From an uncultured Bacteroidales bacterium (GTDB lineage: Bacteria > Bacteroidota > Bacteroidia > Bacteroidales > FEN-979): a stretch of 64,000 nt of DNA. The translations under genes were made by a program, and so were the position numbers. Shown piece after piece: positions 32,468 to 62,757 of this stretch. Position 1 is the stretch's first letter; every line of letters starts with the position of its first letter. The stretch covers positions 27,419 to 91,418 of the forward strand of contig CAIMWF010000044.1 in the NCBI GenBank assembly GCA_903845055.1, given 5' to 3'. The notes under the pieces were generated by a model. That model made no database searches, was not told the origin of the DNA, and saw only the letters and a list, made by a program, of their open reading frames with translations.

Positions 32468-33136
32468 CTATTTCTCCTTTGCCTTATTCTCAAGCATCGG
32501 GACAAACCTGAAGGTGCCATATTCCTTTCTAACAAAGGTCTTTTCGTCCTCTTTAACGACAGTGGTCATGATCTGGACATCGTTGGCCCCCAGGGGAATC
32601 ACCAGGATGCCACCCGGTTTCAATTGTTCCAGCAGGGCATCCGGTATATAGGGTGCGGCAGCGGTAACAATGATCTTGTCAAAGGGTGCATAGGTGGGCA
32701 ATCCTTTGTATCCATCGCCGAAAAAGGTTTTGATGGAATGATAACCTATGAGGGGAAGAAACTTGCTGGTTTTATCAAAGAGGGTTTTCTGCCGTTCAAT
32801 GGTGAAGACCTTCGCACCCAGTTCAGCAAGGATACAGGCCTGGAAACCCGATCCGGTTCCGATTTCAAGCACCTTGTCATTCTTTTTAACCTGCAGCAGT
32901 TCACTCTGAAATGCAACCGTGTACGGCTGTGAAATCGTCTGACCTGCCCCGATCGAAAAGGGTTTATCCTCGTAGGCATATTCAAGGAAGGAGGAATCAA
33001 AGAAAAAATGGCGTGGAACCTTTTCGATTGCAGCGAGAACAAGGGGGTCGGTGATGCCCTTTTGCATGATATTCCGGACCAGTAATTTCCGGAGTCCCTG
33101 ATGCCGGTAAGAGTCAACTGGAAGTGCGTTGGCCAT
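32468..33136 (-). CDS. pcm: Protein-L-isoaspartate O-methyltransferase
   Basis: 222 aa. GQTISQPYTVAFQSELL and VLEIGTGSGFQACILAELG. Confidence 0.93.
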   Translation of the reverse strand: MANALPVDSYRHQGLRKLLVRNIMQKGITDPLVLAAIEKVPRHFFFDSSFLEYAYEDKPFSIGAGQTISQPYTVAFQSELLQVKKNDKVLEIGTGSGFQACILAELGAKVFTIERQKTLFDKTSKFLPLIGYHSIKTFFGDGYKGLPTYAPFDKIIVTAAAPYIPDALLEQLKPGGILVIPLGANDVQIMTTVVKEDEKTFVRKEYGTFRFVPMLENKAKEK

Positions 33137-36641: not shown

Positions 36642-37370
36642 AATATCCTCCACTTTTCCCATAATTTCAGTTGCTTTTCCCTGCAGGTAAATATCTGTGA
36701 GCCCGGCCGTGTAATTTGACGGGGCGGGGTTTACCTCGATGATGGCTGCCCCGTTTTCCTTTGCCATGACCGGGATCTGGCTGGCAGGCATCACCTCCCC
36801 GGTGGTGCCGATGATAAGGAATACATCCGACAGGGCAGCCGCTTCATAGGCTGCTGCAAGGGGAACCTGGGGGATCGGTTCCCCGAAAAACACAAAGTCG
36901 GGTTTCAGGATACCCCCGCACTCGCGGCAGGTGGGAGGAACATGATCAAAGCTGATCTCCGACGACTTGTACATACGCCTGCAATGGGTGCAGAGAAGCT
37001 TTTTCGTATTTCCATGGAAGTCGTATACCAGTTGCGAACCTGCCTCCTGGTGGAGGTTGTCGATATTCTGGGTGATGGTCCGGCCAAGCATTCCCTCCTG
37101 TTCCATGCGGGCAAGTACAAGGTGGGCTCTGTTGGGCCTGGCTTCCGTGAAAAAATCGTAGAAAATCTCTTTGATCACCCTCCATGAACCGGCAGGGTCC
37201 CTGTGGAAATTGCTGATGTCGAGTACGCCCGGATCATATTTGTTCCAGAGACCGCCCTCGCCGCGAAAGGGGGGGATGCCGCTTTCAACCGAGATCCCTG
37301 CTCCCGTAAACGCGGTTGTGAACCTGGATTTTTTTAGTAATCGTACTGCTTCAAGGATTTTTTGTTCCAT
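36597..37370 (-). CDS. cobB: NAD-dependent protein deacylase (Sir2/CobB family)
   Basis: 257 aa. TGAGISVESGIPPFRG, TQNIDNLH, and Zn ribbon CTHCRR...CRECGG. The 3' end overlaps the convergent sugar-transferase gene by 45 nt. Confidence 0.9.
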   Translation of the reverse strand: MEQKILEAVRLLKKSRFTTAFTGAGISVESGIPPFRGEGGLWNKYDPGVLDISNFHRDPAGSWRVIKEIFYDFFTEARPNRAHLVLARMEQEGMLGRTITQNIDNLHQEAGSQLVYDFHGNTKKLLCTHCRRMYKSSEISFDHVPPTCRECGGILKPDFVFFGEPIPQVPLAAAYEAAALSDVFLIIGTTGEVMPASQIPVMAKENGAAIIEVNPAPSNYTAGLTDIYLQGKATEIMGKVEDILFSATLNNDQDCID

Positions 37371-39654: not shown

Positions 39655-40032
39655 TTATAATAGTCTGGGCAGAAACAGGATGACCCCGACAATGACCGCG
39701 ATAGCGGCGGCCATCAAAACGGCTCCTGCTGCAACATCTTTTACGATCCCGGCCTGCTTTTCATAGCCGGGTGAAACCAGGTCGACCAGTATTTCAATAG
39801 CGGTGTTCATCGCCTCCATGGTGATGACCAACCCGATGGTGAGCAGAAGGATGCACCATTCGGTGGCGCTGAGCCGGGCGAGCGCGCCGCAGGCGACTGC
39901 GATGCAAACGGCGACAAGGTGTATCCTGAAATTCAGCTGACTGCCTGCCGTGTATTTTATCCCGTTGGCGGCATAGCCGAAACTCCGCAAACGGCCTGTG
40001 AGATGTGGTTTCAGTCCATGTATCGGCGGCAT
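39655..40032 (-). CDS. dgkA: Diacylglycerol kinase family protein
   Basis: 125 aa, three TM helices. RSFGYAANGI, NTAIE motif (MEAMNTAIE), KDVAAGAVL. The start overlaps the upstream kinase stop (TGATG). Confidence 0.85.
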   Translation of the reverse strand: MPPIHGLKPHLTGRLRSFGYAANGIKYTAGSQLNFRIHLVAVCIAVACGALARLSATEWCILLLTIGLVITMEAMNTAIEILVDLVSPGYEKQAGIVKDVAAGAVLMAAAIAVIVGVILFLPRLL

Positions 40033-43000
40033 CAGTTCTGGCTGTTTAAATGTTTCTCAAGCACCGACATCAGTTCGTGTGCTTTGATGGGTTTTGAAAT
40101 GTAATTGTCGCAACCGGCGGCAATGCTTTTTTCCCGCTCCCCCTTTAACGCGTAAGCTGTCTGGGCAATCACAGGCAGGTTCGGATGCTCCTTTTTCAGA
40201 ATCTGGGTTGTTTCATAACCGTCCATGACGGGCATGCGGATATCCATCAGGACAAGGTCAAAATCCCTCAGTTTGCAGATCGCGATCGCCTCCATGCCGT
40301 TTTTCACCCATACCAGTTTTGCCCCTGTATTTTTAAGCATCCGCTCCATCAGCAGGTAATTTGAATCTTCATCTTCGACGACCAGGATGTTCTTCCGGCT
40401 CCAGTCTTGCACCTTCATCGGAACATGCACCTGCCCGTATGGTTCGATGAACCTGGAGGTATTCTGGTATAGGGGCAGGAGAATGTAAAATGAGGTCCCT
40501 TTGCCACGTTCCGATTCAACGCGGATGGTCCCTCCCAGGAGCTGGACCAGGTTTCTTGAAATGGTGAGCCCCAGGCCGGCACCCCCGTATTTCCGGGTGG
40601 CGGTGTCGTCAACCTGCCTGAAACGCTCGAAGATGATATTGTGCATTTCCCGGGGGATCCCGATTCCGGTATCGCACACATAGAATTCAAGGTAGGGGAT
40701 GGTCCCGATGTTTTTCTGAATGTAGCCGAATTCAACATGTCCCTGGTCGGTAAATTTCAAACCATTTTCAATCAGGTTTGTCAACACCTGGCGAAGCCGG
40801 TTGCCATCGGTAAGGATCGTGAAATCGGGATCCTCGTTGCCCGGAATGCAGTTGAGAGCAACTTTTGTTTTGTTGGTTTTGCGTTTCACCTCGTTGAGGG
40901 TGACTACGAGATTCGACATCAGGGAGTTGAGCAGGCAATCTTTGATCTCGATTTTTATCTGGCCCGATTCAATCTTGGCAATATCAATGATGTCGTCGAT
41001 AATCCGCATGAGGTCGTTCCCGCGTTCCCTGATGATTTCGATGAATTCCTGCTGTTCATCCCTGGTGAGTTCAGGCTCGGACAGAAGTGATGAAAAGCCC
41101 AGGATGGCATTCATGGGGGTCCGGATCTCATGCGACATGTTGGCCAGGAAAGCCGATTTCAGCCGGTCGGAACCTTCTGCTTTGTCGCGGGCTGCTATCA
41201 GGCTCTGCTCGATGCGTTTATGTTCCGAAATGTCGCGGTATATGCAGTAGCCGCCTACAACCTGGTTGTTTATTGTTATCGGTGTGGCAAGGATGGAAAC
41301 ATCGATCAGGTGACCGTCCTTGTGATTGCGATGCGTCTCGGTCTCGGTAGTGATCCCCTTCAGGATGTCGGTTGTTATTTTTGTGGATTCGGCCCGGTTA
41401 CCAGGATCGGCGATGAGATCATCGACGGTCCGGTCAAGGACGTCGGACGGGGTGTATCCGAACAATTTCAGAAACGCCGTATTTACCCTCACGATTTTGC
41501 CAAGTTCCGTTGTCATGATGATTCCTTCGGGAGAACCTTCAAACAACTGGTCCAGGTACGCCTTTTCCTTCTGGAAGGACTCTTCCGCTCCTTTCTTGAA
41601 AATGGTCGTTGCAATGTGATCGGCGACGAAACTGAGCAGTTCGAGGTCATGCAGATCGTATTGTTCGGGATTGGTGTAACTCTGGATTGCGATAACCCCG
41701 ATTACTTTGTTGCCGACCTGGAGCGGAGCGCCCAGCCATACTTTCGACATGGTCCCCACAATTTCGATGGCCCCGGAAGCGACAAGTTTTTCTGTATCCT
41801 GTTGTGATGCAAGGAGCGGAGTTCTCGTTTTTATGACATAGGCAGTCAGTGTCTTGCCTGCCGGGAAGGCAGTAAAAGTGTCGTTTGAATCAACCTGGAA
41901 GGGCAGTGTGATGGTATCGGAACCTTCATCATACATGGCCAGGTAGAAATTTTCGACATCGATGATCATCCCGAGGCTCTTGTGAATCAACCGGAAAACC
42001 TCGTCAAGGTTGCCGGAAGTGTAGGATGCTTTTGATATTTCAAGCAACACATTCTGGATCTGTTCGGCATGTTTGTATTCCGAGATGTCAGAGATGAAAC
42101 CTTCTATAAAGGAGTTGCTGCCGTCGGGGGGATTGATGTATTTCCCTTTTTCCCACACCCATTTTATTTTCCCGTCGGCACATTTTATCCGGTACTCGAC
42201 GATAAAGGGCTTGTTGGCATGCTGGCCGATCTGCACCTCCTCCCATACACGCTCCTGGTCCTCTGCAACGATGAGATCGTTGTAGGTAATGGATTTGTTC
42301 AGGATGATGTCGGCCGGGGAATAACCTGTGAGTTCAATACAGCCGTCGCTGATGAATTCCATGGTCCAGTTGCGGTCGTTGCGGCACCGGTAAACCATCC
42401 CCGGCAGGTTGTCGAGCAGCGTCGCAAACTGTCTTTTTGATTCGGAGAGTTCGCCCGTTCTTTTTTGTTGTTCCGAAATGTCCATGAAGGTTTCCAGCAC
42501 GGCTGGCGTGCTGCCGAACATGACGGGGATCGAAATGTTCAGAATGGGAATTTCCCTTCCGCTCCTGTGGAACAGGATACCCTCTGAATCCCTGACCACG
42601 CTGCCGTTGCCGGTGAGGTTGTGAACATCGGTGCCTGTGGCGCGGATCCTCGCGGTAACCGAGGTGCCGGTCAATTCCCCTGGTTTATCATAACCCATCA
42701 GAGAAACCCCCGTTTTGTTGATCATGAGAATCTTGTCACCGCTCCCGGCAATCATCAGTCCATAAGGGATGGCATCGAAAATGGCGTGCATGCCGTCAAA
42801 TTCAAGGACCCTCCTGGTGGTATCGTCATATTTTGCAGTAATGTCGGCCAGGGTGAACTGGCAGAGGTTGCAGGTCCCGTTTTCGCCGGGGATGACATTC
42901 CCGTCCACCGCTACCGTAATGGCTTGACCGTCACGGCGGATCATTTCAAATTCAGCGTGGTGCATTTCACCGTCCCTGCACAGTTGCACAAACATGGACT

Positions 43001-43241
43001 GAAACCGGCCTGGACCTTCCCCCGACAGGAGATCACCAAACAACCTGCCAATCACCTCTTTCTCATCAAACCCCGTGATGGCTTGCCAGCATGGATTCAC
43101 AAGGAGCAGCCTCCCTTGGCCATCAAGCCGCTGGTAACCAACGGGGGCATGGTGCAGCAACCCGAGGAGGCAGTCACGTTCAGATGGTGGAGCGACACTG
43201 GATTTTCGGAGAATATCCGTTTCTTCGATGTGTGGGTTCAT
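40032..43241 (-). CDS. Hybrid sensor histidine kinase / response regulator (multi-PAS, GAF, HisKA, HATPase_c, REC)
   Basis: 1069 aa. H-box [26 protein letters not shown], G-boxes DTGIGIP and [10 protein letters not shown], receiver [11 protein letters not shown]...[14 protein letters not shown]...YISKP. Confidence 0.93.
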   Translation of the reverse strand: [1069 protein letters not shown]

Positions 43242-43266: not shown

Positions 43267-43932
43267 TTACAAATAGCGTCTTACCCTCAAACGGTAATCC
43301 TCCCATTGCGCTCCGAACCTCTCTTTCAGGAAATTCTCCTCGCTTTTTATGATCTGGTGATGGATATAGATGCTGAAAATGGTAAACGAGAAATTGATCA
43401 GGTCGGGGAAATACAGGACAGATCCGATGGTGATCAGGTACACCCCGGTATAAAGCGGGTTGCGGCTGAAGCTGTATATGCCCCTGGTCTTCAGGGTTGT
43501 CGCGGTATCAGGCAGCCCCACCTTCAGCGATTTTCCAAGCCCGATGATCGCCAACGCTGTCATGAAGGCGCCGACCCACAGGAGCCCTGTTGCAATCCAG
43601 CAAAGAATCGGGGGGACGGGAATGTAACCGAGTTTCGGAAGCAGGGCCTTGACTAAAAAAAGTCCCCAGGAGATTGCCATGGTCACTTTGCCTGTATAAA
43701 AATAATATTTGTCTATCGTGGGTTTTCCAAGCAGTTCGACGCCGTTATTCCTGAGCCCCGCGACCTGCACGATCAGCACCATCCCCAGTATGCTGAAAGC
43801 CGCCAGAACGAAATAACTGTGATGTGGCATCTTTTTTTTCGTAAATGTATATAAATTTCCGGTTTTACGTAAGTTTTCACCCGTAAATTTTTCAAGCAGA
43901 TATTGCCTACCTTTGTCTGATACTTCATCCAT
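43267..43932 (-). CDS. Membrane methyltransferase family protein (isoprenylcysteine carboxyl / phospholipid methyltransferase-like)
   Basis: Polytopic membrane protein. C-terminal LKTRGIYSFSRNPLYTGVYLITIG...EENFLKERFGAQWEDY is typical of the ICMT/PEMT family. The true start may be the internal Met at 43830. Confidence 0.7.
   Translation of the reverse strand: MDEVSDKGRQYLLEKFTGENLRKTGNLYTFTKKKMPHHSYFVLAAFSILGMVLIVQVAGLRNNGVELLGKPTIDKYYFYTGKVTMAISWGLFLVKALLPKLGYIPVPPILCWIATGLLWVGAFMTALAIIGLGKSLKVGLPDTATTLKTRGIYSFSRNPLYTGVYLITIGSVLYFPDLINFSFTIFSIYIHHQIIKSEENFLKERFGAQWEDYRLRVRRYL
43908..43915 (+). promoter_or_regulatory. -7 box TACCTTTG upstream of the ABC-F gene
   Basis: Matches TAnnTTTG, 19 nt upstream of the ATG at 43935. 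Confidence 0.45.
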
Positions 43933-45973: not shown

Positions 45974-46175
45974 AAAAAAATATCAAAACCCTGTCATTTT
46001 CGCCCCCGGTTTCGCTATATTTGTATTCCTGATTGCATTGAAATACGACAACCATGTCATTTTTTCAACATCTTGCCTGGGGGGTGTTTCCTATCCTCTC
46101 ACCCCGCGGATTTCCGCTGTCCAAAGCCGGTTTCCCTCTCCTGACCGGAGCCTTTGGAACCAGACTTCCCTATGT

Positions 46176-46220
46176 CTCCTCTAAGTCTCCCCTAAGACCT
46201 CTCTAAGTCTTCTCTAAGTG
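46176..46220. repeat. Four CTAAG-containing units with exact 11-bp phasing
   Basis: CTAAG at 46181, 46192, 46203 and 46214 (ctcctCTAAGtctcccCTAAGacctctCTAAGtcttctCTAAGtg). Confidence 0.8.
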
Positions 46221-46753
46221 TCGTTTCATATTGGTACATGTTTTTGTCGTGCATTCATGGTGCTTTATTCGTGCATTGTTGCAACTGCCATGCATCATTC
46301 AAATGCCTGCATGGTTGTTCATACGGGGCGACAGCCTATGCTCAAACCGGGACAGACCCTGATTTTTTTGCGGGGGTGGATGAACCGGAATAAATTCAAC
46401 ATGGTTATCCCATTTATTGCTGAAATTTAAGCCATTATTGCATTCTGTGTTTTTTTGCTTAAATTTGTATAGGAGTTCGGCTAAAAATCCCACTTTCAGG
46501 CTCATTCATCGTCCTTCATCATCGTTGCAGAATTGAATCACCGGTATTTCTCTCATGGTAAACCGCCGGTTTAATTGAATGAAAGGAAGACAGCGGGCGT
46601 GCGTCCCCCGGGGGTTTGTTCCCCCTGCTGTTTCCGGTGTGCTCGGAGCTTGGGGGCTTATACATGAGATGATTATATAGGTGAATCAAGCGTCAAAAAT
46701 ATTTTAAATTCCGATTTGGCCTTTAGATTTTTAAACTGAATTACAGTGATTTA

Positions 46754-46890
46754 CACGGAAACCCACAGAGAAGACAGAAAGCTACAAAGAGAATAGAAAA
46801 ACAACTTATAGGGTGCCTGCAATTGAATAATTACAGGTATCACAGATCAACCGCTGTGGTCCTTCAGGACTTCTCTGTAGGTCTCTGTGT
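46754..46890. repeat. Imperfect palindromic element with a purine-rich CACAGAG-type left arm and a pyrimidine-rich right arm; no ORF inside
   Basis: Left ccACAGAGAAGacagaaag (46763-46781) pairs with right CTTCTCTGTag (46871-46880). Inner hairpin CCTGCAATT..AATTACAGG (46816-46836). Confidence 0.65.
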
Positions 46891-47011
46891 AATAAACATT
46901 GACTGGCAATGGCCAACCCTTGATGCGCATTATATGCGAAGGTTCACGCCCTTTGATTTTCATCGGCAGGCCGGGTATGAAGCAGTTGATACGGTTTAAA
47001 AGCAAGCGATT

Positions 47012-49036
47012 ATGTTTGATAACGATGAAAATGAAGGAACCGGGGAACTGCGCCGGAAAGCTGAAGATCTGGTAAAATCCGCCTCTGTTTCGGGTGCCTT
47101 TTCAATGCCCGACCTTTCAGAAACCGACATATTGAAACTCATTCACGAACTCCAGGTGCACCAGGTCGAACTGGAAATGCAGAATGAAGAGCTCCGTCAT
47201 GCCTGGGCAGTAGGACAAATTGCGGTTGACAAGTATACCCAGTTGTACGAATTTGCACCAACAGGATATTTTTCATTGTCAAGGGAGGGCAAAATTACCG
47301 ACATCAACTTTTCCGCGTCCCAGATGCTGGGGAAAGAGCGTTTGCGTTTAAAAAACAGCTCCTTTATTTTTTTTGTTTCGAATGATACGAAACCGGTATT
47401 CAGACATTTTTTTGAGAACGTATTTGCCGGTAAAACCAGGGAAATGTGCGAGCTGGCCCTTGCAACAGGTGGAAATTCCCCTTTCTATGTTCAGCTTACC
47501 GGCAGGCTTACCGAAAATGAAGATCAATGCCTGGTTGCCATGATCGATGTCACCGAACGGTTAAGGCTTGAAAAGGAGGTTAAAGAGCGTGAAGAAAAAT
47601 ACCGCATCATCGTTACTACCTGCCGGGATGCCCTGTTTCTTATTGACCCGGAATCCGGTGCAATCCTGGATGCAAATGATGCCGCCTGTAAACTCTATGG
47701 TTTCTCCACGGAGGAATTGAAAGAATTGAAAAACACCGATTTATCCTTTGAACCGGCCGCGACAAGATTTGCGACGATCAACCTGAAGGAGAGAATCGAA
47801 CTTCGATATCACAAAAAAAAGAATGGGCGGGTCTTCCCGGTGGATATTTCCTCAAACCTTTTAATGATGGACGGGAGGGAGGTCATCCTTGCCGCGATTC
47901 GCGACATAACCGATCGCCAGGCAGATGAAGATGCCCTGAAAGAAAGTGAGGGACGATTCAAGTCTTTGTTTGAACGGCACAGCGCGATCATGCTGCTCAT
48001 CGATCCCGGATCAGGTCAGATCATCCATGCAAACCATGCCGCGGCACTGTTTTATGGATACAGTATTTCCGAATTGTGTTCCATGACCATCGACCAGATA
48101 AACGGGTTGTCAGCCGGGGAGGTAAAATCAGAGTTGCTAAACGCGGCCGGTCAAAACCGCAACTTCTTCGTTTTTTCACACTTTTTAGCCAGCGGGGAGG
48201 AACGTATTGTTGAAGTGCATTCATCCCCGATCGATTATTTGCAGAAACGGGTGCTTTTTTCAATAATATTTGACATTACCGAACGCAAACAGGCTGAGAC
48301 ATTGATAACCCTTAAAAATGCAGAACTGCTGAAACTCAGCGCCGAAAAAGACAAATTCTTCTCCATCATCGCCCACGACCTGCGCAGCCCTTTCAATGCA
48401 TTCCTTGGCTTGTCAAAGATGATGATCGAAGAGTTTGATACCATATCATCCGATCAGCTTCGCAATATCGCCATGAGCATCCAGAAGTCGGCAACCAACC
48501 TTTACAGCCTTCTGGAAAACCTGCTGGACTGGTCGCGCATCCGGAGGGGGGCAATCCCATTTGAACCTGCATTATTGTCGCTGCTGCCAATGATCGAAGA
48601 AGCTTTAAAACCGGTCGGGGAATTGGCCTTCAGAAAGGAGATAGAGATCGGGTATGAAATTGCCGCCGATTGTAAGGTTTTTGCCGACCGGTTTATGCTG
48701 GGTACGATCCTGCGCAACCTGGTTGCCAATGCCGTGAAATTTTCTTACAGGGGCGGAAAAATATCCATTGTTGCAAAACCTGCGGGCGGCCACCTGGTTG
48801 AAATATCCATCAGGGACAAAGGAATTGGCATGGATGGAAAAATGGTTGAAAATCTGTTTCACCTCGATAATCATGCAAACAGGAAGGGCACGGAGGGAGA
48901 GTCCTCTACAGGACTGGGCCTCGTCATCTGCAGGGAGTTCGTTGAAAAAAACGGAGGAACCCTGCGGGCGGAGAGCAAGGAGGGCAATGGCTCCGTATTT
49001 TATTTTTCATTGCCGGCAGACAGCGGGGAGGAGTGA
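47012..49036 (+). CDS. PAS-domain sensor histidine kinase (coiled coil, 3 PAS, HisKA, HATPase_c)
   Basis: 674 aa. N-terminal HELQVHQVELEMQNEEL, PAS ends D(V/I)TER, H-box FFSIIAHDLRSPFNA, G-box STGLGLVICREF. Confidence 0.92.
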   Translation: MFDNDENEGTGELRRKAEDLVKSASVSGAFSMPDLSETDILKLIHELQVHQVELEMQNEELRHAWAVGQIAVDKYTQLYEFAPTGYFSLSREGKITDINFSASQMLGKERLRLKNSSFIFFVSNDTKPVFRHFFENVFAGKTREMCELALATGGNSPFYVQLTGRLTENEDQCLVAMIDVTERLRLEKEVKEREEKYRIIVTTCRDALFLIDPESGAILDANDAACKLYGFSTEELKELKNTDLSFEPAATRFATINLKERIELRYHKKKNGRVFPVDISSNLLMMDGREVILAAIRDITDRQADEDALKESEGRFKSLFERHSAIMLLIDPGSGQIIHANHAAALFYGYSISELCSMTIDQINGLSAGEVKSELLNAAGQNRNFFVFSHFLASGEERIVEVHSSPIDYLQKRVLFSIIFDITERKQAETLITLKNAELLKLSAEKDKFFSIIAHDLRSPFNAFLGLSKMMIEEFDTISSDQLRNIAMSIQKSATNLYSLLENLLDWSRIRRGAIPFEPALLSLLPMIEEALKPVGELAFRKEIEIGYEIAADCKVFADRFMLGTILRNLVANAVKFSYRGGKISIVAKPAGGHLVEISIRDKGIGMDGKMVENLFHLDNHANRKGTEGESSTGLGLVICREFVEKNGGTLRAESKEGNGSVFYFSLPADSGEE

Positions 49037-49065: not shown

Positions 49066-52005
49066 ATGAGCGACAGGAGAACAAAATACATAGAGACGGT
49101 AAAAAAAACAACCCCGGGGCTGATCACCGGATTATCTTCGTTCCCCATCGTGGGCATTGGCGCCTCGGCAGGCGGGCTTGAAGCACTGGAACAGTTTTTC
49201 GGGAGCATGCCCAATGACAACGGCATGGCCTTCGTGGTCATTCAGCACCTCGACCCCAACCATGCAGGCATGATGCCCGAATTGCTGCAACGGATCACCC
49301 CCATGAAGGTATTCCAGGCAGCCGACCGGCTGAAGGTGAAACCCAATTGTGTATATGTGATCCCCCCTGGCAAAAGCCTCTCGATGCTCAATGGCGCCTT
49401 GCATTTGTTCGACCCGGTTCAGGCGCGGGGGCTGAGGCTGCCCGTTGATGTTTTCTTTCGTTCGCTGGCCGATGACCAGCAACACCGGAGCATAGGCATC
49501 ATCCTGTCGGGAATGGGCAGCGATGGCAGCCTCGGGCTGAAGGCCATCAAAGAAAAAAACGGGATGGTGCTGGTGCAGGAGCCGGCCACCGCAAAATTCG
49601 ATGGCATGCCGCGCAGCGCCATCGAAGCGGTCATTGCCGACATTATAGCGCCTGCCATGGAATTACCAGCGCGGCTGATCTCATTTCTTAACTTTATCCC
49701 GGCCGCGAAGCCAGACAGCGACATCGATGGGAAAACCACCGGCAATCTCGATAAAATCATCATCCTGATCCGTGACCAGACCGGCCACGACTTTTCAATG
49801 TACAAGAAAAACACCCTTTTCCGACGCATTGAAAGACGCATGGGGGTTCACCAGATTGACAAGATTAACACCTACGTACACTTTTTACAGGAGAATACAA
49901 GGGAGATCGACATTCTGTTCAAGGAGTTGCTCATCGGCGTTACAAACTTTTTTCGCGATGCCGCTGTTTGGGACTGCCTGAAAGAAAAAGTGATTCCCGC
50001 ACTTACCGACGAATTTCCTTATGGGCATGTGCTGCGCGCCTGGGTTACGGGATGTTCGACAGGCGAGGAGGCCTACAGCCTGGCCATTGTCTTTAAGGAG
50101 GCGCAGGAAAAAACTCAAAATCATAAAAACATAACGCTCCAGATATTTGCCACCGACCTCGACCCCGACGCCGTTGAGATTGCGCGCAGGGGCGTTTACT
50201 CCTCCGGTATTGCGGCGGATGTATCCCCCGAACGCCTGAACCATTTTTTTATGGCCGACATGGAAGGGTACCGCGTGAATACCTCCATCCGCGAAATGGT
50301 GGTGTTTGCCAGCCAGAATGTGATCAGGGATCCTCCCTTTACCAAGCTCGACATTCTTACCTGCCGCAATTTACTCATATACATGCAGCCGGATCTGCAG
50401 AAGAAGGTGATCGGGCTTTTTCATTACAGCATGAACCCCGGCGGATACATGCTGCTGGGCACTTCCGAAACCCTGGGGACCGAAAAAAGGGGTTTTGCGG
50501 AGGTTGATTCCAGGTTGAAGATTTTTAAACGCAGCATCTCGCCTGCGGAGAAGGTACTGGTTGATTTTCCAAGTTCTTTTTCACGGCCGAAACGTGTAAC
50601 AGCCGAAGAGACAAAACCGCCGGAGGATGTTGTCAACCTGCAGGCCGCGGCCGACCAGTTCATGCTTCGGCACTTTACCCCGGCCGGTGTGCTGGTGAAT
50701 GGCGAGGGTGACATTCTTTACATGACCGGCAACATCGGCCGGTACCTTGTTCCGGTTGCCGGGAAGGCTGATTATAACATCCATGTGATGGCACACGATG
50801 GTTTTCGCCAGGGTTTGCCCGGGGCACTGCGCAAAGCGATGCAAAACCCCGACCCGGTCGTACTGGCCAATGTGAAGGTCGGGACCAACGGGGGCACCCG
50901 CTTTGTTAATGTAACAGTTCAAAGGATTGAGAAACCCGGTTCAACGGCCGGTTTGGTTATGGTTGTATTTGCCGACGTGCCTGCCCCGGTAGAAAATGCA
51001 GCATTGAAACCGGTCAACAGGAAAAACAGTTCATCAGGGCGAATGAAAGAACTTGAAATTGAACTGCAAAGGAACCAGGAGGACATGCAGAGCACCCGCG
51101 AGGAGATGCAGACCGCCCAGGAGGAGTTGAAATCAACCAACGAGGAACTCCAGTCAACCAACGAAGAATTGCAATCGACCAACGAGGAACTCAACACCTC
51201 CAAGGAAGAGATGCAGAGCCTGAATGAAGAGCTGCAAACGGTGAATGTGGAGCTGCAGAGCAGGGTGACTGATTTTATCAGGGCAAACGACGACATGAAA
51301 AACCTGCTTAACAGCACGGAGGTTGCAACTTTGTTTCTCGACAGGGATATGAACGTCCGCAGGTTTACCGACCAGGTAACGAAAATTATCAAATTGCGGA
51401 ACTCCGATACCGGCAGACCCTTCACCGACCTGGTATCCGATTTGCAATATCCTGAAATCGTGAGCCATGTCACGGAGGTGATCCGAACCCTGGTATCGGT
51501 TGAAACTGCCATTCCAACCACCGACGGAAGGTGGTTTAATGTCCGGATTATGCCATACCGCACGGTTGATGACCACATTGACGGGCTGGTGATAACATTT
51601 TCGGATATCACCTTCGCCAAGATTGCCGAGAAAACGCTGTCCATCTCTGAAACCCGCTACCGCCGCATCTTTGAATCGGCAAAAGATGGAATTCTTATCC
51701 TGGATGCAGAATCCGGTAAAATCGTGGATGTGAATCCATTTCTCATCAAATTGCTGGGCTATTCAAAAGAACAGTTCCTTGAAAAAGCGATCTGGGAAAT
51801 AGGATTCCTTAACGACATCGTCGCCAACAAGGATATCTTTACGGAATTGCAGGAGAAGGAGATTGTCAGGTATGAAGATTTACCGCTTGAAACAGCGGAT
51901 GGCAGGAAGATCAATGTTGAGTTCGTCAGCAATGTTTACCTGGTCTCCGGCGTGAAGGTAATCCAATGCTTTATCCGCGAAAGCATTGGCCACTTCCCAT
52001 TATAA
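49066..52005 (+). CDS. CheB methylesterase - CheR methyltransferase fusion protein with PAS domains and a heptad coiled coil (no kinase or receiver module)
   Basis: 979 aa. CheB catalytic domain (IVGIGASAGGLEAL...ILSGMGSDGSLG...FDGMPRSAI), CheR domain (TNFFRD...WVTGCSTGEEAYSLA...IFATDLD), STNEELQ repeats, two C-terminal PAS domains. Confidence 0.9.
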   Translation: MSDRRTKYIETVKKTTPGLITGLSSFPIVGIGASAGGLEALEQFFGSMPNDNGMAFVVIQHLDPNHAGMMPELLQRITPMKVFQAADRLKVKPNCVYVIPPGKSLSMLNGALHLFDPVQARGLRLPVDVFFRSLADDQQHRSIGIILSGMGSDGSLGLKAIKEKNGMVLVQEPATAKFDGMPRSAIEAVIADIIAPAMELPARLISFLNFIPAAKPDSDIDGKTTGNLDKIIILIRDQTGHDFSMYKKNTLFRRIERRMGVHQIDKINTYVHFLQENTREIDILFKELLIGVTNFFRDAAVWDCLKEKVIPALTDEFPYGHVLRAWVTGCSTGEEAYSLAIVFKEAQEKTQNHKNITLQIFATDLDPDAVEIARRGVYSSGIAADVSPERLNHFFMADMEGYRVNTSIREMVVFASQNVIRDPPFTKLDILTCRNLLIYMQPDLQKKVIGLFHYSMNPGGYMLLGTSETLGTEKRGFAEVDSRLKIFKRSISPAEKVLVDFPSSFSRPKRVTAEETKPPEDVVNLQAAADQFMLRHFTPAGVLVNGEGDILYMTGNIGRYLVPVAGKADYNIHVMAHDGFRQGLPGALRKAMQNPDPVVLANVKVGTNGGTRFVNVTVQRIEKPGSTAGLVMVVFADVPAPVENAALKPVNRKNSSSGRMKELEIELQRNQEDMQSTREEMQTAQEELKSTNEELQSTNEELQSTNEELNTSKEEMQSLNEELQTVNVELQSRVTDFIRANDDMKNLLNSTEVATLFLDRDMNVRRFTDQVTKIIKLRNSDTGRPFTDLVSDLQYPEIVSHVTEVIRTLVSVETAIPTTDGRWFNVRIMPYRTVDDHIDGLVITFSDITFAKIAEKTLSISETRYRRIFESAKDGILILDAESGKIVDVNPFLIKLLGYSKEQFLEKAIWEIGFLNDIVANKDIFTELQEKEIVRYEDLPLETADGRKINVEFVSNVYLVSGVKVIQCFIRESIGHFPL

Positions 52006-52018
52006 ATATTGAACGACG

Positions 52019-55000
52019 ATGAAACAGGACAATATATCAGCATCCGGAATTCTGCGGCATAAGGCCGAAATGTTTCTGAAAAACAGGCCTTCGGCATCAG
52101 CTTCACAACTTTCTGAAACAGAGATGGTGGAACTTATTCACGAACTTGAAGTGCACCAGGTGGAGCTGGAAATGCAGAATGAAGAGCTCATGAAGGCAAG
52201 GTCCGCCGCTGCAGATTCCGCTGAGAAATACACCAGCCTCTATGAATTTGCCCCTGCGGGTTATCTTACCATCTCCCCTGATGGAAGAATTCATGAGATC
52301 AACCTCCGCGGAACACAAATGCTGGGCAGTGACCGTTCCCATTTACAAAACAGTTTTTTTGATATTCATGTTTCCAAAGAGACCAAGTCAATTTTCAACC
52401 AGTTCCTGAACAGGGTGTTTGATAAACAGGAAAATGAGTCATGCGACGTGGCCCTGACAACGAATGGCAGCATCCCCGTGTATGCTCAGCTTACCGGTGT
52501 TTTAGCTGAAAACGGCGTGAATTGCCTGCTGACCGCTGTTGACATTACCAAACGCAGGCATGCGGAAGAGAGGGCATGCCAGCTGGCCGCCATCGTTCAG
52601 TCATCAGAGGATGCCATCATCGGAAAAAACCTCGGCGGGATGATCACAAGTTGGAACAAGGGGGCAGAAAAAATATACGGGTATACAGAATTGGAGATGA
52701 TCGGCAGACCTGTTTCAATACTGACTCCGGCGGGTAACGACGATGAGGTTCCCGCCCTCCTTGAAAGGATCAAATCGGGACAGGTTATCCAGCATTACGA
52801 AACCTCGCGCAGGAGAAAAGACGGGTCGGAAATCCAGGTGTCGCTCACCATTTCTCCCATTTTTGATTCCGAAGGCAGGATCATTGCCGCGTCGACCATT
52901 GCAAGGGACATCACGGGGCGCAAGCAGGCAGAGCAGACCCTGCATGAGAGCAGGCAGGAGCTGGTTCATACCATCAGCCAGCTAGCGCTGGCGCAGCAAA
53001 CCGGGCATGTCGGTTCCTGGAATTTCGATCTCAGAACCAATAAACTCAGCGGATCGGCCGAAGCGCAGCGATTGTTCGGTCTTTTTGACCGTGATAACTC
53101 TTTTGATCTTCAACACATTGAGGACTGCATTCCCGACCGCGAACGGGTTCACCAGGCTTTGACAGATCTCATTGCAAATGGCACTCCGTACGACCTTGAA
53201 TATGTCATTAATCCGGCCGATGGATCGGAACCCAGGGTCATCATCTCAAAAGCCACCATCGGAAAAGATTCGGCAGGCAATCCTGTTTCAGTGAACGGCA
53301 TCGTCCAGGACATCACCGAAAATAAGCTCATCTCTGAGAAATTACTGTCACAGACAACGTTGCTTGAAGCCCAGCTAAACTCTACCCTTGACGGGATACT
53401 GATTGTAGGCCGGGATAACAGGCGGATTCTCTTAAACCGGCGCATGATCGAATTGTTTAATGTTCCGGCGGATATTGCCGAAGATAAGGATGATTCCAGG
53501 TTGTTGAAACATGTGATGGACCTGACCAAAAATCCCGGCAGGTTTCTTGAAAGGATCATCTATCTGAACGATCATCCGGATAAGGAAAGCAGCGATGAGA
53601 TCGAATTTGCCGACGGGATGGTCATTGACAGGTATTCGGCGCCTGTAGCCGGCAGGGATGGGAAAAGCTTTGGGCGGATATGGATTTTCCGCGATATTAC
53701 CGAACGCAAGCTGGCAGATTCATTGTTCCGGGACATCATTGAAAAAAATCCGATATCCATTCAGATTCTGAACATGGATGGCTATACGATCCAGACAAAC
53801 CCGGCTCACACAAAACTTTTTGGCGTGACAACCCCGGCAAATTATTCTATTTTTAAAGACACGCAATTATTGAACCAGGGATTGGGTGTGTTGTTTGATA
53901 AGGTTAAAGAGGGTGAAACCGTAAATTTTCCTGATTCAAAGTTTAATGTCCATGACGTAGACCCTTCGTTTCCGGATGTCATGGCATGGATCAAGGCAGT
54001 AGGATTCACTTTGCAAAATAAAAACGGGGTGCCCCACCGGGTGGTCCTGATGCATGAGAACATTACCGAACGCAAACATGCGGAAGCCCTGTTCCATGAT
54101 ATTATTGAAAAAAACCCGATGTCAATTCAGATCGTTGATAAAAACGGGTATACGCTCAATGGAAACCCGGCCTATACAAATCTTTTTGGATCACTTCCTC
54201 CTCCCGGCTTTTCAATTTTTGAAGACCTGCAGCGTAAAAGTCCGGAACTCGGGAAATTAATTTCGCTTGCCAGGCAGGGCGAGGTGGTTCATCTCCCCGA
54301 CATATATTATAATACGAAAGATGTTGACCCTGATCTCCCGGATAAACCGGTGTGGATCCGTGCCCTTCTTTTTCCGCTGAATGATACCAGCGGGAAACCC
54401 GAACGGTATGTTTTCATGCACGAGAATATCACAGAACGCAAGCTGGCTGAACAGGAACTGATCAAAACCATGGAGCGGGCCGAGGAATCCGACCGGCTGA
54501 AGTCGGCTTTCCTTGCCAACATGAGCCACGAAATACGGACGCCCATGAACGGGATCCTGGGTTTTGCAGGGTTGCTGAAAGAACCGGGATTAAACGGGGA
54601 GGAGCAGCAAAAGTATATCCGGATCATCGAAAAAAGCGGTACGCGTATGCTCAACATCATCAATGACATTGTGGATATCTCGAAAATAGAATCGGGACAG
54701 ATGGAGGTTGCTCTTTCTGCCGTGAATGTCAATTCGGTTACCGACTATTTATATGCCTTTTTCAAACCGGAAGCTGAAACAAAGGGAATACGGCTGATCC
54801 TTGAAAATTCGCTGCCGGCAAAAGAGGCGGTTATCATTTCCGACAAAAACAAATTCGATTCCATTCTTACCAACCTCATCAAGAATGCGATAAAATACAC
54901 CTTTGCGGGATCTATTGAATTCGGGTACCATTTTGTTGGGACACCCCATCAACCATTCCTTCAATTTTTTGTAAAGGACACCGGTATCGGAATCCCGGAA

Positions 55001-55618
55001 GAGCGGCAGGAAGTCATATTTGAACGCTTTATCCAGGCTGATATTTCCGATACACAGGCATACCAGGGAGCCGGGCTGGGGCTGGCCATTGCCAAGGCAT
55101 ATGTTGAAATGCTTGGTGGCAAAATCCGGGTGGAAAGCGAATATGGAAAGGGTTCCGTGTTTTATTTTTCCATTCCGTACATTACAGGTAACCAGGCAAT
55201 CAACACCTTTGTAAATGCTATTTCTACGGAAAATCCGGACACCCGGGTTGCAAAACTGAAAATCCTGATTGCCGATGACGATGAAACCTCCGACCTGTTC
55301 ATCGAAACGCTGATCAGTCCGTTCAGCAGGGAGGTCCTGCATGCGGAAACAGGAACCGAGGCCGTTCGTTTGTTCGGCAGCAATCCTGACATCGACCTGG
55401 TGATGATGGACATGAAGATGCCCGGAATGAACGGCTACGAAGCCACCCGGCAAATCCGTCAGTTTAACACGGATGTGATCATCATTGCCCAGACAGCTTA
55501 CGGACTTTCAGGCGACCGGGAGAAGGCCCTGGAAGCAGGATGCAATGATTATATTTCGAAGCCCATCGCCAGGGAGGAATTGCTTGGCCTGATTCAGAAA
55601 CATTCAAATAAGGTGTAA
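52019..55618 (+). CDS. Hybrid sensor histidine kinase / response regulator with multiple PAS domains
   Basis: 1199 aa. N-terminal HELEVHQVELEMQNEEL, repeated PAS ends (DIT(E/G)RK), H-box SDRLKSAFLANMSHEIRTPMNGILGF, G-box GAGLGLAIAK, receiver ILIADDDETS...DLVMMDMKMPGMNG...YISKP. Confidence 0.93.
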   Translation: MKQDNISASGILRHKAEMFLKNRPSASASQLSETEMVELIHELEVHQVELEMQNEELMKARSAAADSAEKYTSLYEFAPAGYLTISPDGRIHEINLRGTQMLGSDRSHLQNSFFDIHVSKETKSIFNQFLNRVFDKQENESCDVALTTNGSIPVYAQLTGVLAENGVNCLLTAVDITKRRHAEERACQLAAIVQSSEDAIIGKNLGGMITSWNKGAEKIYGYTELEMIGRPVSILTPAGNDDEVPALLERIKSGQVIQHYETSRRRKDGSEIQVSLTISPIFDSEGRIIAASTIARDITGRKQAEQTLHESRQELVHTISQLALAQQTGHVGSWNFDLRTNKLSGSAEAQRLFGLFDRDNSFDLQHIEDCIPDRERVHQALTDLIANGTPYDLEYVINPADGSEPRVIISKATIGKDSAGNPVSVNGIVQDITENKLISEKLLSQTTLLEAQLNSTLDGILIVGRDNRRILLNRRMIELFNVPADIAEDKDDSRLLKHVMDLTKNPGRFLERIIYLNDHPDKESSDEIEFADGMVIDRYSAPVAGRDGKSFGRIWIFRDITERKLADSLFRDIIEKNPISIQILNMDGYTIQTNPAHTKLFGVTTPANYSIFKDTQLLNQGLGVLFDKVKEGETVNFPDSKFNVHDVDPSFPDVMAWIKAVGFTLQNKNGVPHRVVLMHENITERKHAEALFHDIIEKNPMSIQIVDKNGYTLNGNPAYTNLFGSLPPPGFSIFEDLQRKSPELGKLISLARQGEVVHLPDIYYNTKDVDPDLPDKPVWIRALLFPLNDTSGKPERYVFMHENITERKLAEQELIKTMERAEESDRLKSAFLANMSHEIRTPMNGILGFAGLLKEPGLNGEEQQKYIRIIEKSGTRMLNIINDIVDISKIESGQMEVALSAVNVNSVTDYLYAFFKPEAETKGIRLILENSLPAKEAVIISDKNKFDSILTNLIKNAIKYTFAGSIEFGYHFVGTPHQPFLQFFVKDTGIGIPEERQEVIFERFIQADISDTQAYQGAGLGLAIAKAYVEMLGGKIRVESEYGKGSVFYFSIPYITGNQAINTFVNAISTENPDTRVAKLKILIADDDETSDLFIETLISPFSREVLHAETGTEAVRLFGSNPDIDLVMMDMKMPGMNGYEATRQIRQFNTDVIIIAQTAYGLSGDREKALEAGCNDYISKPIAREELLGLIQKHSNKV

Positions 55619-55853: not shown

Positions 55854-55926
55854 GCGGTAGTAGCTCAGATGGTAGAGCATCAGCTTCCCAAGCTGAGGGT
55901 CGTGGGTTCGATCCCCATTTACCGCT
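55854..55926 (+). tRNA. tRNA-Gly (anticodon CCC)
   Basis: Hand-folded cloverleaf. Acceptor GCGGTAG/TTACCGC, D arm GCTC-agatggta-GAGC, anticodon stem TCAGC/GCTGA with loop TTCCCAA, T arm GTGGG-ttcgatc-CCCAT. CCA is not encoded. Confidence 0.9.
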
Positions 55927-55941
55927 CAAAACAAAAGAAAA

Positions 55942-55977
55942 AGGCTGCCCCGGACTTCGGAGGCAGCCTCTTTTTTT
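55942..55977. terminator. Bidirectional rho-independent terminator
   Basis: AGGCTGCC-ccggacttcgga-GGCAGCCT followed by cTTTTTTT on the + strand and by TTTTTCTTTTGTTTT on the - strand. Confidence 0.8.
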
Positions 55978-61038: not shown

Positions 61039-62757
61039 TTATGGTTGATTGCCGCTTACCGGCCCGGATAGATACCCCGCCACCAGTTCCCTGAGTTTCT
61101 TTGGATTCAGGGGTTTGGTTACATAATCGTCGCACCCTGCCGCGATTGCTTTTTCGCGGTCGCCCGTGATGGCATAGGCTGTCTGTGCAATGATGCGGAT
61201 ATCGGGATTGATGTTCTTGATGGCAATGGTTGCTTCATACCCGTCCATAAAGGGGAGTTTTATGTCCATCAGGATCAGCGGGGTTTGTGGGTTTTTTTTG
61301 ATGAAATCGATGGCTTCGGGACCGTTGATGGCATGTTGGATGGAAAGGCACATTGGGGCGAGAATTCCTTCGATCAGGTGGAAACTGTCAATGTCATCTT
61401 CAACCACAAGCACCAGGTTATTGGCAACAGGTTGCTGGAGCCGGGAGATATTGCTGTCTGCAACAACCGACCCCGGGGCGCCGGGCGGGTTCATCAGCGG
61501 GATGGCGACATAGAAGCAGGATCCTTCGCCCCACTTGCTTTTCAGCCAGATCCGGCCATGAAGGATCTTTACGATCTTGTCAACGATGGACAACCCGATG
61601 CCGATTCCCTCCCTGTTCATTTCATGGTAATTGAACTTGGTAAAACGTTCAAATATTTTATGCTGGTCTTCATCGGGGATCCCGGTTCCGGTATCGGATA
61701 CCGATAACAGGATATCACCCTTGCTTTTCCGGCAACCGATGCGGATAATCCCTCCGGAGGTGTGTTTGATGGCATTGGAAAGGAGGTTTGACATCACCTG
61801 CTTCAGCCTGAACAGGTCGGAATATATCTCGAAATCACCCTCCGGAAGGGAATATTCAATGGTGATTGCGGTTTTATTTCTGCGTTGCAGTTCCAGGTTG
61901 CTGATATCCACGAGTTCGATAAAGAGTTCCCGGATGCTGAAAGTTGAAAAATGCAGTTTGATATCGCCGGCTTCAATGGTCGACAGGTCGATGATCTCGT
62001 TGATCAGTCGCAGCAGGTTGTCGCCGCTGTTTTGTATGATCTTTAAAAATTTTTGTTTTTCCTCTTCGTCACATTCCCCTTCAAGAAGCTGGCTAAAGCC
62101 GATGATGGCATTCATGGGGGTCCTGATTTCGTGCGACATGTTGGCCAGGAAGGCGGATTTCAATTTATCGGACCGGATGGCCCGTTCCTTCTGGTAAAGA
62201 AAATCGTTTTTGATTTTGTTAAGCACGAACAAGAGCAGGACGGAATACAGGAAGAAATTCAGATAAATATCGATGGTTCTCGTTTTCAGGTCAGGATAGG
62301 CAAAATGAAAACCGGGACTGGTATATTCAACGATGAACAATACTAAAAGGTTGACGTAATAAAAGGCAATCATCCGGACCAGGCACCAGCCATCCCACAC
62401 CCAGATAATGAGGGCGCCGAAAACAAAAACCAGGAAAACTACGGGACCCAGGGAAAGGAATTTTACATACCAGGTGAGGTCGAGTATCACCAGCCCCACC
62501 CCTGTCAGGATCAGTTTAGGGAAATAAATGCAATTTGTAAACCTTACCAGGAAATACAACACCATGCATACTGCCGCGCCGACAGCTCCAAGGTAAACCG
62601 GCGCCACGCTGAATCCCATGACAAGGTGGAAGATACTGAGTAATATCAGGAAAACGCAGGATGTAAAGGTCATCATGGTCATGAAATACCTTTCATACTT
62701 CACCTGTCCCTTTTCGCCGTAAACAGTGTCAAAGAGTTTGCTGAAAGGATTGTTCAT
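61039..62757 (-). CDS. Membrane-bound hybrid sensor histidine kinase / response regulator
   Basis: 572 aa. About 5 N-terminal TM helices, H-box SDKLKSAFLANMSHEIRTPMNAIIGF, G-boxes DTGTGIP and GIGIGLSIV, receiver LVVEDDIDS...LILMDIKLPFMDG...YVTKP. Confidence 0.92.
   Translation of the reverse strand: MNNPFSKLFDTVYGEKGQVKYERYFMTMMTFTSCVFLILLSIFHLVMGFSVAPVYLGAVGAAVCMVLYFLVRFTNCIYFPKLILTGVGLVILDLTWYVKFLSLGPVVFLVFVFGALIIWVWDGWCLVRMIAFYYVNLLVLFIVEYTSPGFHFAYPDLKTRTIDIYLNFFLYSVLLLFVLNKIKNDFLYQKERAIRSDKLKSAFLANMSHEIRTPMNAIIGFSQLLEGECDEEEKQKFLKIIQNSGDNLLRLINEIIDLSTIEAGDIKLHFSTFSIRELFIELVDISNLELQRRNKTAITIEYSLPEGDFEIYSDLFRLKQVMSNLLSNAIKHTSGGIIRIGCRKSKGDILLSVSDTGTGIPDEDQHKIFERFTKFNYHEMNREGIGIGLSIVDKIVKILHGRIWLKSKWGEGSCFYVAIPLMNPPGAPGSVVADSNISRLQQPVANNLVLVVEDDIDSFHLIEGILAPMCLSIQHAINGPEAIDFIKKNPQTPLILMDIKLPFMDGYEATIAIKNINPDIRIIAQTAYAITGDREKAIAAGCDDYVTKPLNPKKLRELVAGYLSGPVSGNQP

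Follow-up and report, generated by a model that had tools for sequence, protein, structure and literature searches.

Glutamate methylation by CheR- and CheB-type enzymes is understood almost entirely as chemoreceptor adaptation. In E. coli chemoreceptors it is the second glutamate of a pair that is methylated, and the sites of Tsr (297, 304 and 311) lie seven residues apart. Wuichet and Zhulin are said to have described, in 2010, a methyl-accepting coiled-coil (MAC) class that includes the type MAC1, and to have proposed it as a possible link between two-component signalling and chemotaxis. In those passages of Vass, Bourret and Foster (10.1101/2022.05.07.491037) which deal with the class, it is placed in many lineages, about 80% of MAC-bearing species are given as also having other chemotaxis systems, some proteome clusters are reported to have MAC components only, and MAC proteins are described as joining receptor and kinase functions; MiST 3, by the part of its description that bears on the class (PMC6943060), holds both MAC1 and MAC2 profiles. 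Here we examine a gene for a CheB-CheR-PAS fusion protein, on the forward strand at positions 49066 to 52005 of a 64,000-nucleotide stretch of contig CAIMWF010000044.1 (the window; all coordinates are positions within it, unless a locus is named), from an uncultured Bacteroidales bacterium. The family of this protein is evidently MAC1 by the published description, and a methyl-accepting coiled coil in such proteins is already published and not new. As read from the sequences, what departs from the published MAC1 description is a kinase-less form with a conserved, separately encoded partner that opens with a characteristic helix.

Like MAC1, the fusion protein has CheB and CheR domains on one polypeptide with a receptor-like coiled coil that carries glutamate pairs, and its family is found in many phyla; its long relatives (CheB-CheR-coiled coil-PAS_10-PAS-HisKA or HisKA_2-HATPase) fit the MAC1 description exactly. 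In contrast, no kinase is present in the fusion protein itself, in its 120 closest homologues or in about two-thirds of the best representatives of the family, and a separately encoded protein with the partner helix is found instead. The commonest form of the family therefore comes without an output of its own and with a specific, conserved candidate partner element, borne in this locus by two kinases.

We assessed this pairing in a sample of one genome per species, collected with patterns from the fusion protein only, in which 80 loci were kept and 69 were evaluable downstream of the fusion gene. In most loci the next same-strand open reading frame (ORF) downstream opens with a near-identical helix, LHELxVHQIELEMQNEEL. 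A hidden Markov model (HMM) of this partner module (about 165 residues, helix plus PAS) was built from 45 regular-expression matches, the window being left out, and was searched against all six-frame ORFs. The partner is adjacent to the fusion gene or fused with it in 57 of the 69 evaluable loci, which span about eleven phyla: a full module starts 0-900 nt past the stop of the fusion gene in 54, usually within 200 nt and on the same strand, is fused in frame in one (L047), and is recovered by a helix-only model in two (L013 and L029). The helix also lies immediately downstream in five further loci that are cut by contig ends. By comparison, only two modules occur in the 545,436 bp of flanking sequence that lie beyond 4.5 kb of the fusion gene, and about 0.2 adjacent loci are expected by chance. 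Twenty-three module matches lie outside the initial regular expression, and the pairing is therefore no artefact of that expression. A preliminary description of the locus, made from its sequence alone, had raised the idea that such genes lie preferentially beside kinases with a QNEEL motif, and these counts, taken over all proteins with the helix, strongly bear it out. Our literature searches, which did not extend to the original 2010 MAC paper, returned no published description of the pairing.

For the reverse comparison, 80 metagenome loci were chosen by the helix pattern only. Here 39 of 63 modules lie downstream of a fusion gene (35 directly and four as second in a row), as do 20 of the 41 clusters formed at 70% identity (16 and four, respectively). 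The link is thus very strong from the side of the fusion gene and holds for about half from the side of the partner. Such half-linkage is expected if one enzyme serves several partners, some of them unlinked, or if the module works without the enzyme. Several partner-module genes accompany one fusion gene in the window and in four other loci (L032, L059, L061 and L062). Natural fusions of the two proteins are rare, being limited to P0227 among 150 family representatives and to one genome locus, L047. The latter is also one of two genome loci whose fusion gene has a kinase core; it has the partner module fused in, and the other (L075) has no adjacent partner. Those representatives that otherwise carry a kinase lack the partner helix. 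Two related loci (L087:6173-14377 and L102:315-8592) show a partner-module HisKA_3 kinase followed by a LuxR-type regulator, a REC-PAS hybrid kinase, a CheY-like receiver, CheW, a CheR-TPR fusion and a second CheW. In this che-like cluster an unfused CheR lies a few kb from the helix protein and no CheB-CheR fusion is visible; the helix may associate with other CheR types too, or the proximity may be coincidence.

In the window, the fusion gene is bracketed by two histidine kinases on the same strand. The upstream one (HK1, 47012-49036, 674 residues) consists of the partner module, two further PAS domains, HisKA and HATPase_c; the downstream one (HK2, 52019-55618, 1199 residues) is a hybrid kinase with the partner module, several PAS domains, HisKA, HATPase_c and REC. 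The partner modules lie at 47108-47560 and 52082-52552, with the helices LIHELQVHQVELEMQNEEL (at about 47138-47194) and LIHELEVHQVELEMQNEEL (at about 52133-52189). The two kinases score 167.6 (HK1, over the full length of the HMM) and 163.8 bits (HK2) against a model to which neither had contributed, and both have the signature L-H-E-L-x-V-H-Q-I-E-L-E-M-Q-N-x-x-L, followed by Y-x-x-L-Y-D-x-A-P-x-G-Y and a PAS fold, beside a fusion gene. They are paralogous PAS kinases, as the preliminary description had it: their N-terminal regions of about 310 residues are 38% identical, including the stretch LIHELxVHQVELEMQNEEL, and both carry HisKA and HATPase. HK2 occupies the canonical downstream position and HK1 is an extra upstream copy, a same-strand upstream partner being found in four of 60 loci. 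The order HK1-fusion gene-HK2 recurs in independent assemblies from three samples and is therefore no assembly artefact. A six-frame search found the partner helix in HK1 and HK2 only; two other sensor kinases of the window, one a PAS-GAF-PAS hybrid kinase and the other a HisKA-HATPase-REC protein (40032-43241 and 61039-62757, both on the reverse strand), are without it, rich in PAS kinases as the window is. That the output of the fusion protein has been split off onto a neighbouring gene, as had been supposed, is reasonable given the synteny; the conserved partner is, however, an N-terminal helix and not a kinase as such.

This distinction is visible in the range of outputs. After the helix there is usually a PAS domain, and the output that comes next varies: it may be HisKA, HisKA_3, a hybrid kinase with Hpt, a sigma-54 AAA+ activator (in Geobacter), a GGDEF cyclase (in Thauera) or none; the Bacteroidales partners of 193 residues have no output domain. 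In one downstream partner (L013:4415-5827) the helix is joined directly to HisKA-HATPase-REC with no PAS domain between them, which suggests that the partner function resides in the helix by itself. Stand-alone partners of about 190-230 residues, helix plus PAS, occur in Bacteroidales-type relatives (L002:12834-13412, L004:12946-13521, L006:12574-13260 and L069:2096-2650). We considered whether these short partners are followed by a kinase gene and rejected this, the next genes coding for a Scaffold domain with an L,D-transpeptidase, an AraC-type HTH protein and a GH130 protein. No entry of Pfam, NCBIfam or the PDB takes in the helix, and the PDB matches of the module are generic PAS domains that start after it. 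Also rejected was an origin of the module as a duplicate of the coiled coil and PAS_10 domain of the fusion protein: hhalign gave a probability of 94% at 7% identity, which is generic PAS similarity, and left the helices unaligned.

The fusion ORF starts with ATG and encodes 979 residues, ending in IQCFIRESIGHFPL before the stop codon. Pfam, AlphaFold2 and comparison with homologues agree on a CheB-CheR-PAS-coiled coil-PAS_10-PAS protein of MAC1 type without kinase. Pfam places a CheB methylesterase catalytic domain at residues 29-204 (CheB_methylest, E = 1e-56; 49150-49677), CheR_N at 228-277 (2e-14) and the CheR methyltransferase at 292-483 (1e-50; the two together at 49747-50514), PAS_10 at 744-849 (6e-29; 51295-51612) and a PAS domain at 864-956 (5e-12). 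The CheB domain is receiver-less, because only 28 residues stand ahead of it. The NCBIfam models for CheB and CheR match in part and far under their cut-offs, as expected for a fusion; only the C-terminal halves of the CheB models are matched, with a score of 128 against a cut-off of 342. Neither Pfam nor NCBIfam finds REC, HisKA, HATPase or any other output domain in the 979 residues. Between CheR and the coiled coil there is no significant Pfam match (the best is PAS_4, E = 0.039). The AlphaFold2 model of residues 515-645 has a predicted local distance difference test (pLDDT) score of 90, and its top 50 Foldseek matches in the PDB are all PAS domains (probability 1.00, template modelling scores of 0.5-0.6); this stretch is therefore predicted to be a divergent PAS fold (residues 523-640 approximately; 50632-50985), giving three PAS folds in total. 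The full-length model (pLDDT 82, predicted template modelling score, pTM, 0.44) has an uninterrupted helix at residues 659-750 by DSSP, a single long coiled coil of about 13 heptads (51040-51315). The domain reading of the preliminary description, with a PAS-like region, a coiled coil, two PAS domains and no output module after the two enzymes, is thus confirmed by Pfam, AlphaFold2 and Foldseek.

The missing kinase might be taken to mean that the gene is truncated or decaying, and the occurrence of a C-terminal kinase in some members of the family would agree with this. However, the C-terminal PAS domain (residues 864-972; 51655-51981), which Pfam PAS and TIGR00229 both recognise, appears complete in the AlphaFold2 model, with strands at 933-942, 948-960 and 963-972. 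Only seven residues follow before the stop, and the protein therefore ends at a domain boundary, without truncation. The closest homologues have equal length and the same end (979 residues, 100% coverage), the catalytic residues are conserved, an identical locus is found in several samples and the kinase-less architecture is that of the majority, so that loss of a kinase module is effectively refuted. An exhaustive search returned 18,794 cluster representatives at E <= 1e-30, a count that includes ordinary CheR and CheB proteins, and a word-indexed search returned at least 8,000 candidates, of which the 120 best matches (62-100% identity, 908-1,144 residues) all lack kinase domains. For the analysis of architecture and conservation we used the 150 best representatives of clusters at 50% identity. 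Nearly all full-length members among them match residues 25-860 (approximately) of the query in one stretch, with 733-1,135 bits, and their total lengths range from 572 to 2,167 residues; the family therefore has a conserved CheB-CheR-PAS-coiled coil-PAS_10 core and a variable tail. About two-thirds are no longer than 1,050 residues, which is too short for a kinase, and at least 29 have a recognisable kinase core; the long members sampled carry HisKA_2/HWE or HisKA with HATPase, some of them with GAF or REC. By length and domain content, then, no form of this very large family is commoner than the one without a kinase, and the gene is not the orphan that it had been taken for. One locus of the family (L137:2301-7759) has two fusion genes head to head on opposite strands, with a partner module after the forward-strand copy.

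The catalytic domains are, to judge by their residues, an intact CheB esterase and an intact CheR methyltransferase. Alignment with the CheB structures 3sft and 1chd places Ser34 (in GASAGG), His61 (IQH) and Asp153 (GMGSDG) on the GxSxGG, QH and GMGxDG motifs, and alignment with the CheR structures 5xly, 5ftw and 1af7 shows all the pocket motifs to be present: GCSTGEEAYS (from residue 329), ATDLD (362) and CRNLLIY (433). Among the representatives, the CheB triad has serine in 143 of 143, histidine in 147 of 147, and aspartate in 137 and glutamate in 10 of 148 aligned, and the CheR motifs C-S-T-G-E-E, A-T-D-x-D and C-R-N-x-x-I-Y are near-invariant. This pattern indicates purifying selection on the CheB triad and on the S-adenosylmethionine (SAM) motifs of CheR across the 150 representatives, and the inactivating substitutions that would have spoken against active enzymes are found neither in this protein nor family-wide. 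Measured against chemotaxis CheB, the Ser-His-Asp triad is present and the N-terminal receiver is absent; measured against CheR, the all-alpha N-terminal domain and the SAM-binding Rossmann domain with its pocket motifs are both present, CheR_N and CheR lying above their Pfam cut-offs.

With bona fide CheB and CheR domains, the protein could be an ordinary pair of fused adaptation enzymes whose targets are canonical chemoreceptors with genes in another part of the genome, the more so as our scan for methyl-accepting chemotaxis proteins (MCPs), for CheA and for CheW covered ORFs of the window only. We consider this very improbable. Both enzyme folds and their catalytic motifs are those of the canonical system, whereas here CheB has no receiver that would couple it to CheA, the enzymes are fused together and to their putative substrate, there is no MCPsignal domain, and seven tandem near-identical sites, with serine for the alanine of E. 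coli, stand in place of four or five dispersed ones. No CheA or CheW is encoded nearby: in agreement with the preliminary description, Pfam found no MCP, CheA or CheW in the window's 36 largest ORFs, a scan that did not take in every small ORF. Close relatives of the fusion gene occur in Flavobacterium, Pedobacter and Hymenobacter, which are genera not known to have flagellar chemotaxis, and the proteome clusters reported as MAC-only point the same way. Canonical receptors would also leave the conserved pairing with a helix-bearing neighbour unexplained, and given that pairing in 57 of the 69 loci the earlier proposal that the targets are something other than chemoreceptors is a reasonable one.

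The earlier suggestion of a tie to a mostly non-flagellated phylum proved not to be specific. By record label, loci with the fusion gene come from about eleven phyla, including Bacteroidota, Verrucomicrobiota, Desulfobacterota, Myxococcota, Chloroflexota, Planctomycetota, Pseudomonadota (Thauera, Duganella, Accumulibacter and Methylobacter), Acidobacteriota, Nitrospirota, Bacillota and Ignavibacteriota. Flagellated, chemotactic genera are among them, and the spread shows that the family is therefore not tied to non-flagellated bacteria. One locus labelled as uncultured Bifidobacteriaceae (L021), with a fusion gene 59% identical to the query and a partner gene, stands among matches otherwise from Verrucomicrobiota and Bacteroidota and is possibly a binning error. 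Homologues with 63-74% identity over 97-100% of the length carry, as their JGI name, that of KEGG K13924, 'two-component system, chemotaxis family, CheB/CheR fusion protein'; this is an annotation label only, with no function or partner described. Literature searches with CheB/CheR fusion names and motif strings found nothing on function, and the phrase turned up in gene tables only.

The candidate methyl-accepting sites lie in the coiled coil, at 51100-51252, as an N-E-E-L-x-S-T array delimited by column conservation and consensus matches. Per-column conservation over about 150 cluster representatives shows seven consecutive heptads N-E-E-L-(Q/E/K)-S-(T/S), with glutamate pairs at residues 679/680, 686/687, 693/694, 700/701, 707/708, 714/715 and 721/722 and a further V-E at 728/729. 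In the five pairs 693/694 to 721/722, conservation is 94-100%, and the asparagine, leucine and serine positions are similarly fixed, which is therefore more than a purely structural coiled coil would need. The array is invariant both in kinase-bearing and in kinase-less members of the family. Its heptads, E-E-L-Q-S-T, place the glutamate pair and the small residues at the offsets of the E. coli consensus, but with serine for alanine. A relaxed form of the consensus, [EQ][EQ]xx[AST][AST], has a median of four matches per coiled coil against none per equal length elsewhere in the same proteins, and five heptads of the window's fusion protein fit it. These features make the coiled coil a probable methyl acceptor. 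Deamidation, which had been offered beside methylation, has no support in the sequence because the candidate acceptor positions are glutamate and not glutamine; E/Q interchange is confined to the edge sites 680 and 729. We also considered the coiled coil as a detectable homologue of MCPs and rejected this in the absence of any MCPsignal match at Pfam thresholds or among the 25 best weak matches listed; the resemblance to chemoreceptors is therefore one of pattern and register, and not of detectable homology.

Taken together, the reading that we favour, and to which we give somewhat better than an even chance as a whole, is that of a MAC1-type cytoplasmic sensor without a kinase of its own, which would be tuned by methylation and would signal via partner kinases. 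HK1, the fusion gene and HK2 would form one operon and one signalling unit. An intracellular cue sensed by the PAS domains would alter the coiled coil and thereby change the accessibility of its sites to CheR and CheB; the tethered CheR would methylate, and CheB would demethylate, the glutamates at position c in the coiled coil of this same protein. The partner helix, with its matching a/c/d signature, may be a further target. The level of methylation would set the stability of the coiled coil and so tune the activity of HK1 and HK2, the signal being passed on to the partner helix through its methylation or through direct helix-helix or PAS-PAS contact. The outcome would be a chemoreceptor-like adaptation or memory in a two-component pathway. 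Methylation of HK1 and HK2 by the fusion protein is, on the sequence patterns, possible.

Several points weigh against this composite, and some of them speak for a narrower alternative, in which the fusion protein methylates its own coiled coil and the partner helix is a recognition element that receives an allosteric signal and is never itself modified. Contact would be made by the helix zipping onto or beside the coiled coil through polar Asn/Gln a-layers, or by PAS domains. In its heptad frame the helix has glutamine or asparagine at a, glutamate at c and leucine at d, as have the N-E-E-L heptads of the fusion protein, and buried asparagine layers are specificity determinants in coiled coils, so that the shared a and d pattern suits docking. 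Among 69 modules, L26, E32 and L40 are found in all, L33 and Q36 in 68, Q30 in 66, E25 and N37 in 65 and H29 in 62, whereas the two glutamates of QNEEL are the least conserved part of the helix (54 and 57 of 69). The helix is thus conserved as an interface would be, with its EE pair the most variable; this combination, together with the near-invariance of E25, of E32 and of the leucine, glutamine and asparagine positions, agrees equally well with a docking surface and with a substrate. The invariance of the Glu-Glu array of the fusion protein, whether or not a kinase is attached, is likewise what docking would lead one to expect. On the other side, a helix-only HMM does not recognise the heptads of the fusion protein (best 6.9 bits), the comparison of profiles gives generic PAS similarity only, and about half of the partner modules do not lie beside a fusion gene. 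We regard docking without modification as unlikely, if a serious contender.

Less probable still is the converse, that the neighbour's helix is the sole methyl acceptor and the coiled coil of the fusion protein a dimerising spacer, by analogy with the many chemoreceptors that are served by one CheR/CheB pair. The several partner genes per fusion gene, many of them unlinked, recall chemoreceptor genes; the c-position glutamates of the helix are conserved (E25 in 65 and E32 in 69 of 69), and there is precedent for methylation at HE and TE pairs. FrzCD of Myxococcus xanthus is such a cytoplasmic methyl-accepting protein, with heptad-spaced sites at E168, E175 and E182 that include a non-consensus HE pair, and its methyltransferase FrzF has, like the enzymes here, an extra regulatory domain, which controls site choice. 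FrzCD is, however, a true MCP that signals via CheA, and enzyme and substrate are separate proteins. If the helix is a substrate, HK1 and HK2 would also resemble MAC2, in which the gene for a kinase-containing protein whose coiled coil is putatively methyl-accepting lies close to genes for unfused CheR- and CheB-type enzymes; those enzymes are separate proteins, whereas here they are fused together and to their own coiled coil. A mere spacer would not need Glu-Glu pairs conserved at 94-100% in each of five central heptads, and the kinase-bearing members keep the array yet have no partner helix. We accordingly think it improbable that the partner is the sole substrate.

Other points bear on the favoured reading, of a methylation-tuned sensor that signals via partner kinases, irrespective of these two alternatives, and they too count against it. 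The strict E. coli consensus E-E-x-x-A-S/T has a median of zero matches per coiled coil, serine replacing alanine. MCPsignal (PF00015) has no Pfam match in the whole fusion protein at E <= 0.01, and it is absent from the 25 best of 117 weak matches to the coiled-coil segment at E <= 10, all of which are generic coiled-coil families. The inter-domain geometry of the AlphaFold2 model is, at a pTM of 0.44, unreliable, and contacts between the enzymes and the coiled coil are not interpretable in it. A chain that carries both CheR and a CheB without receiver would be prone to a futile methylation cycle. About half of the partner-module clusters have no fusion gene in the available flank, and the module may work independently or in trans. 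The operon is inferred from the short gaps (29 nt between HK1 and the fusion gene, 13 nt between the fusion gene and HK2) and the missing promoter motif. Finally, the MAC class was experimentally uncharacterised as of 2022, according to the passages on it in 10.1101/2022.05.07.491037.

Should the partner helix be methylated, methylation-based adaptation would extend to two-component, cyclic di-GMP and sigma-54 pathways, also in non-motile bacteria. With a defined partner helix and two partner kinases in this locus, the question of which targets these enzymes have and which outputs they control becomes directly testable by biochemistry. A bolder extension, which we put forward tentatively and think more probably wrong than right, is that a PAS-regulated writer and eraser sets the glutamate methylation of a portable receiver helix, in analogy to a kinase and its receiver, and that domain shuffling has, in about eleven phyla, attached this helix to histidine kinases, diguanylate cyclases and sigma-54 activators. 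If this were true, reversible glutamate methylation would be a general signalling currency of bacteria beyond chemotaxis, and a single enzyme would serve several partners, adjacent ones as well as unlinked ones.

The stretch of about 830 nt upstream of HK1 (46185-47011) has no ORF of 100 residues or more and no Rfam match. The motif TAnnTTTG, to which the preliminary description had pointed as a promoter trait of the window, is not enriched window-wide (42 occurrences against 33.9 +/- 5.8 expected). In this stretch upstream of HK1 its only forward-strand occurrences are at 46016 and 46460, and it is missing between HK1 and the end of HK2, a placement that is compatible with one transcript for HK1, the fusion gene and HK2. 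Scans for sigma-70 promoters and terminators, together with the TAnnTTTG counts, gave no clear operon boundaries. Four other enzymes that modify proteins or lipids are encoded in the window, without an apparent link to the fusion gene: a protein-L-isoaspartate O-methyltransferase (PCMT; 32468-33136, reverse strand), a SIR2 deacetylase (36597-37370, reverse), a PEMT/ICMT-like methyltransferase (43267-43932, reverse) and a TylF-like O-methyltransferase (7802-8551, forward). The surroundings are otherwise ordinary chromosomal core, with genes for DnaJ/GrpE, UvrD, EF-G, a ribosomal protein cluster, SecY, RpoA and enolase. Directly after HK2 lies a tRNA-Gly (CCC) at 55854-55927, and a strong terminator-like hairpin is found on the opposite strand at 55938-55973.

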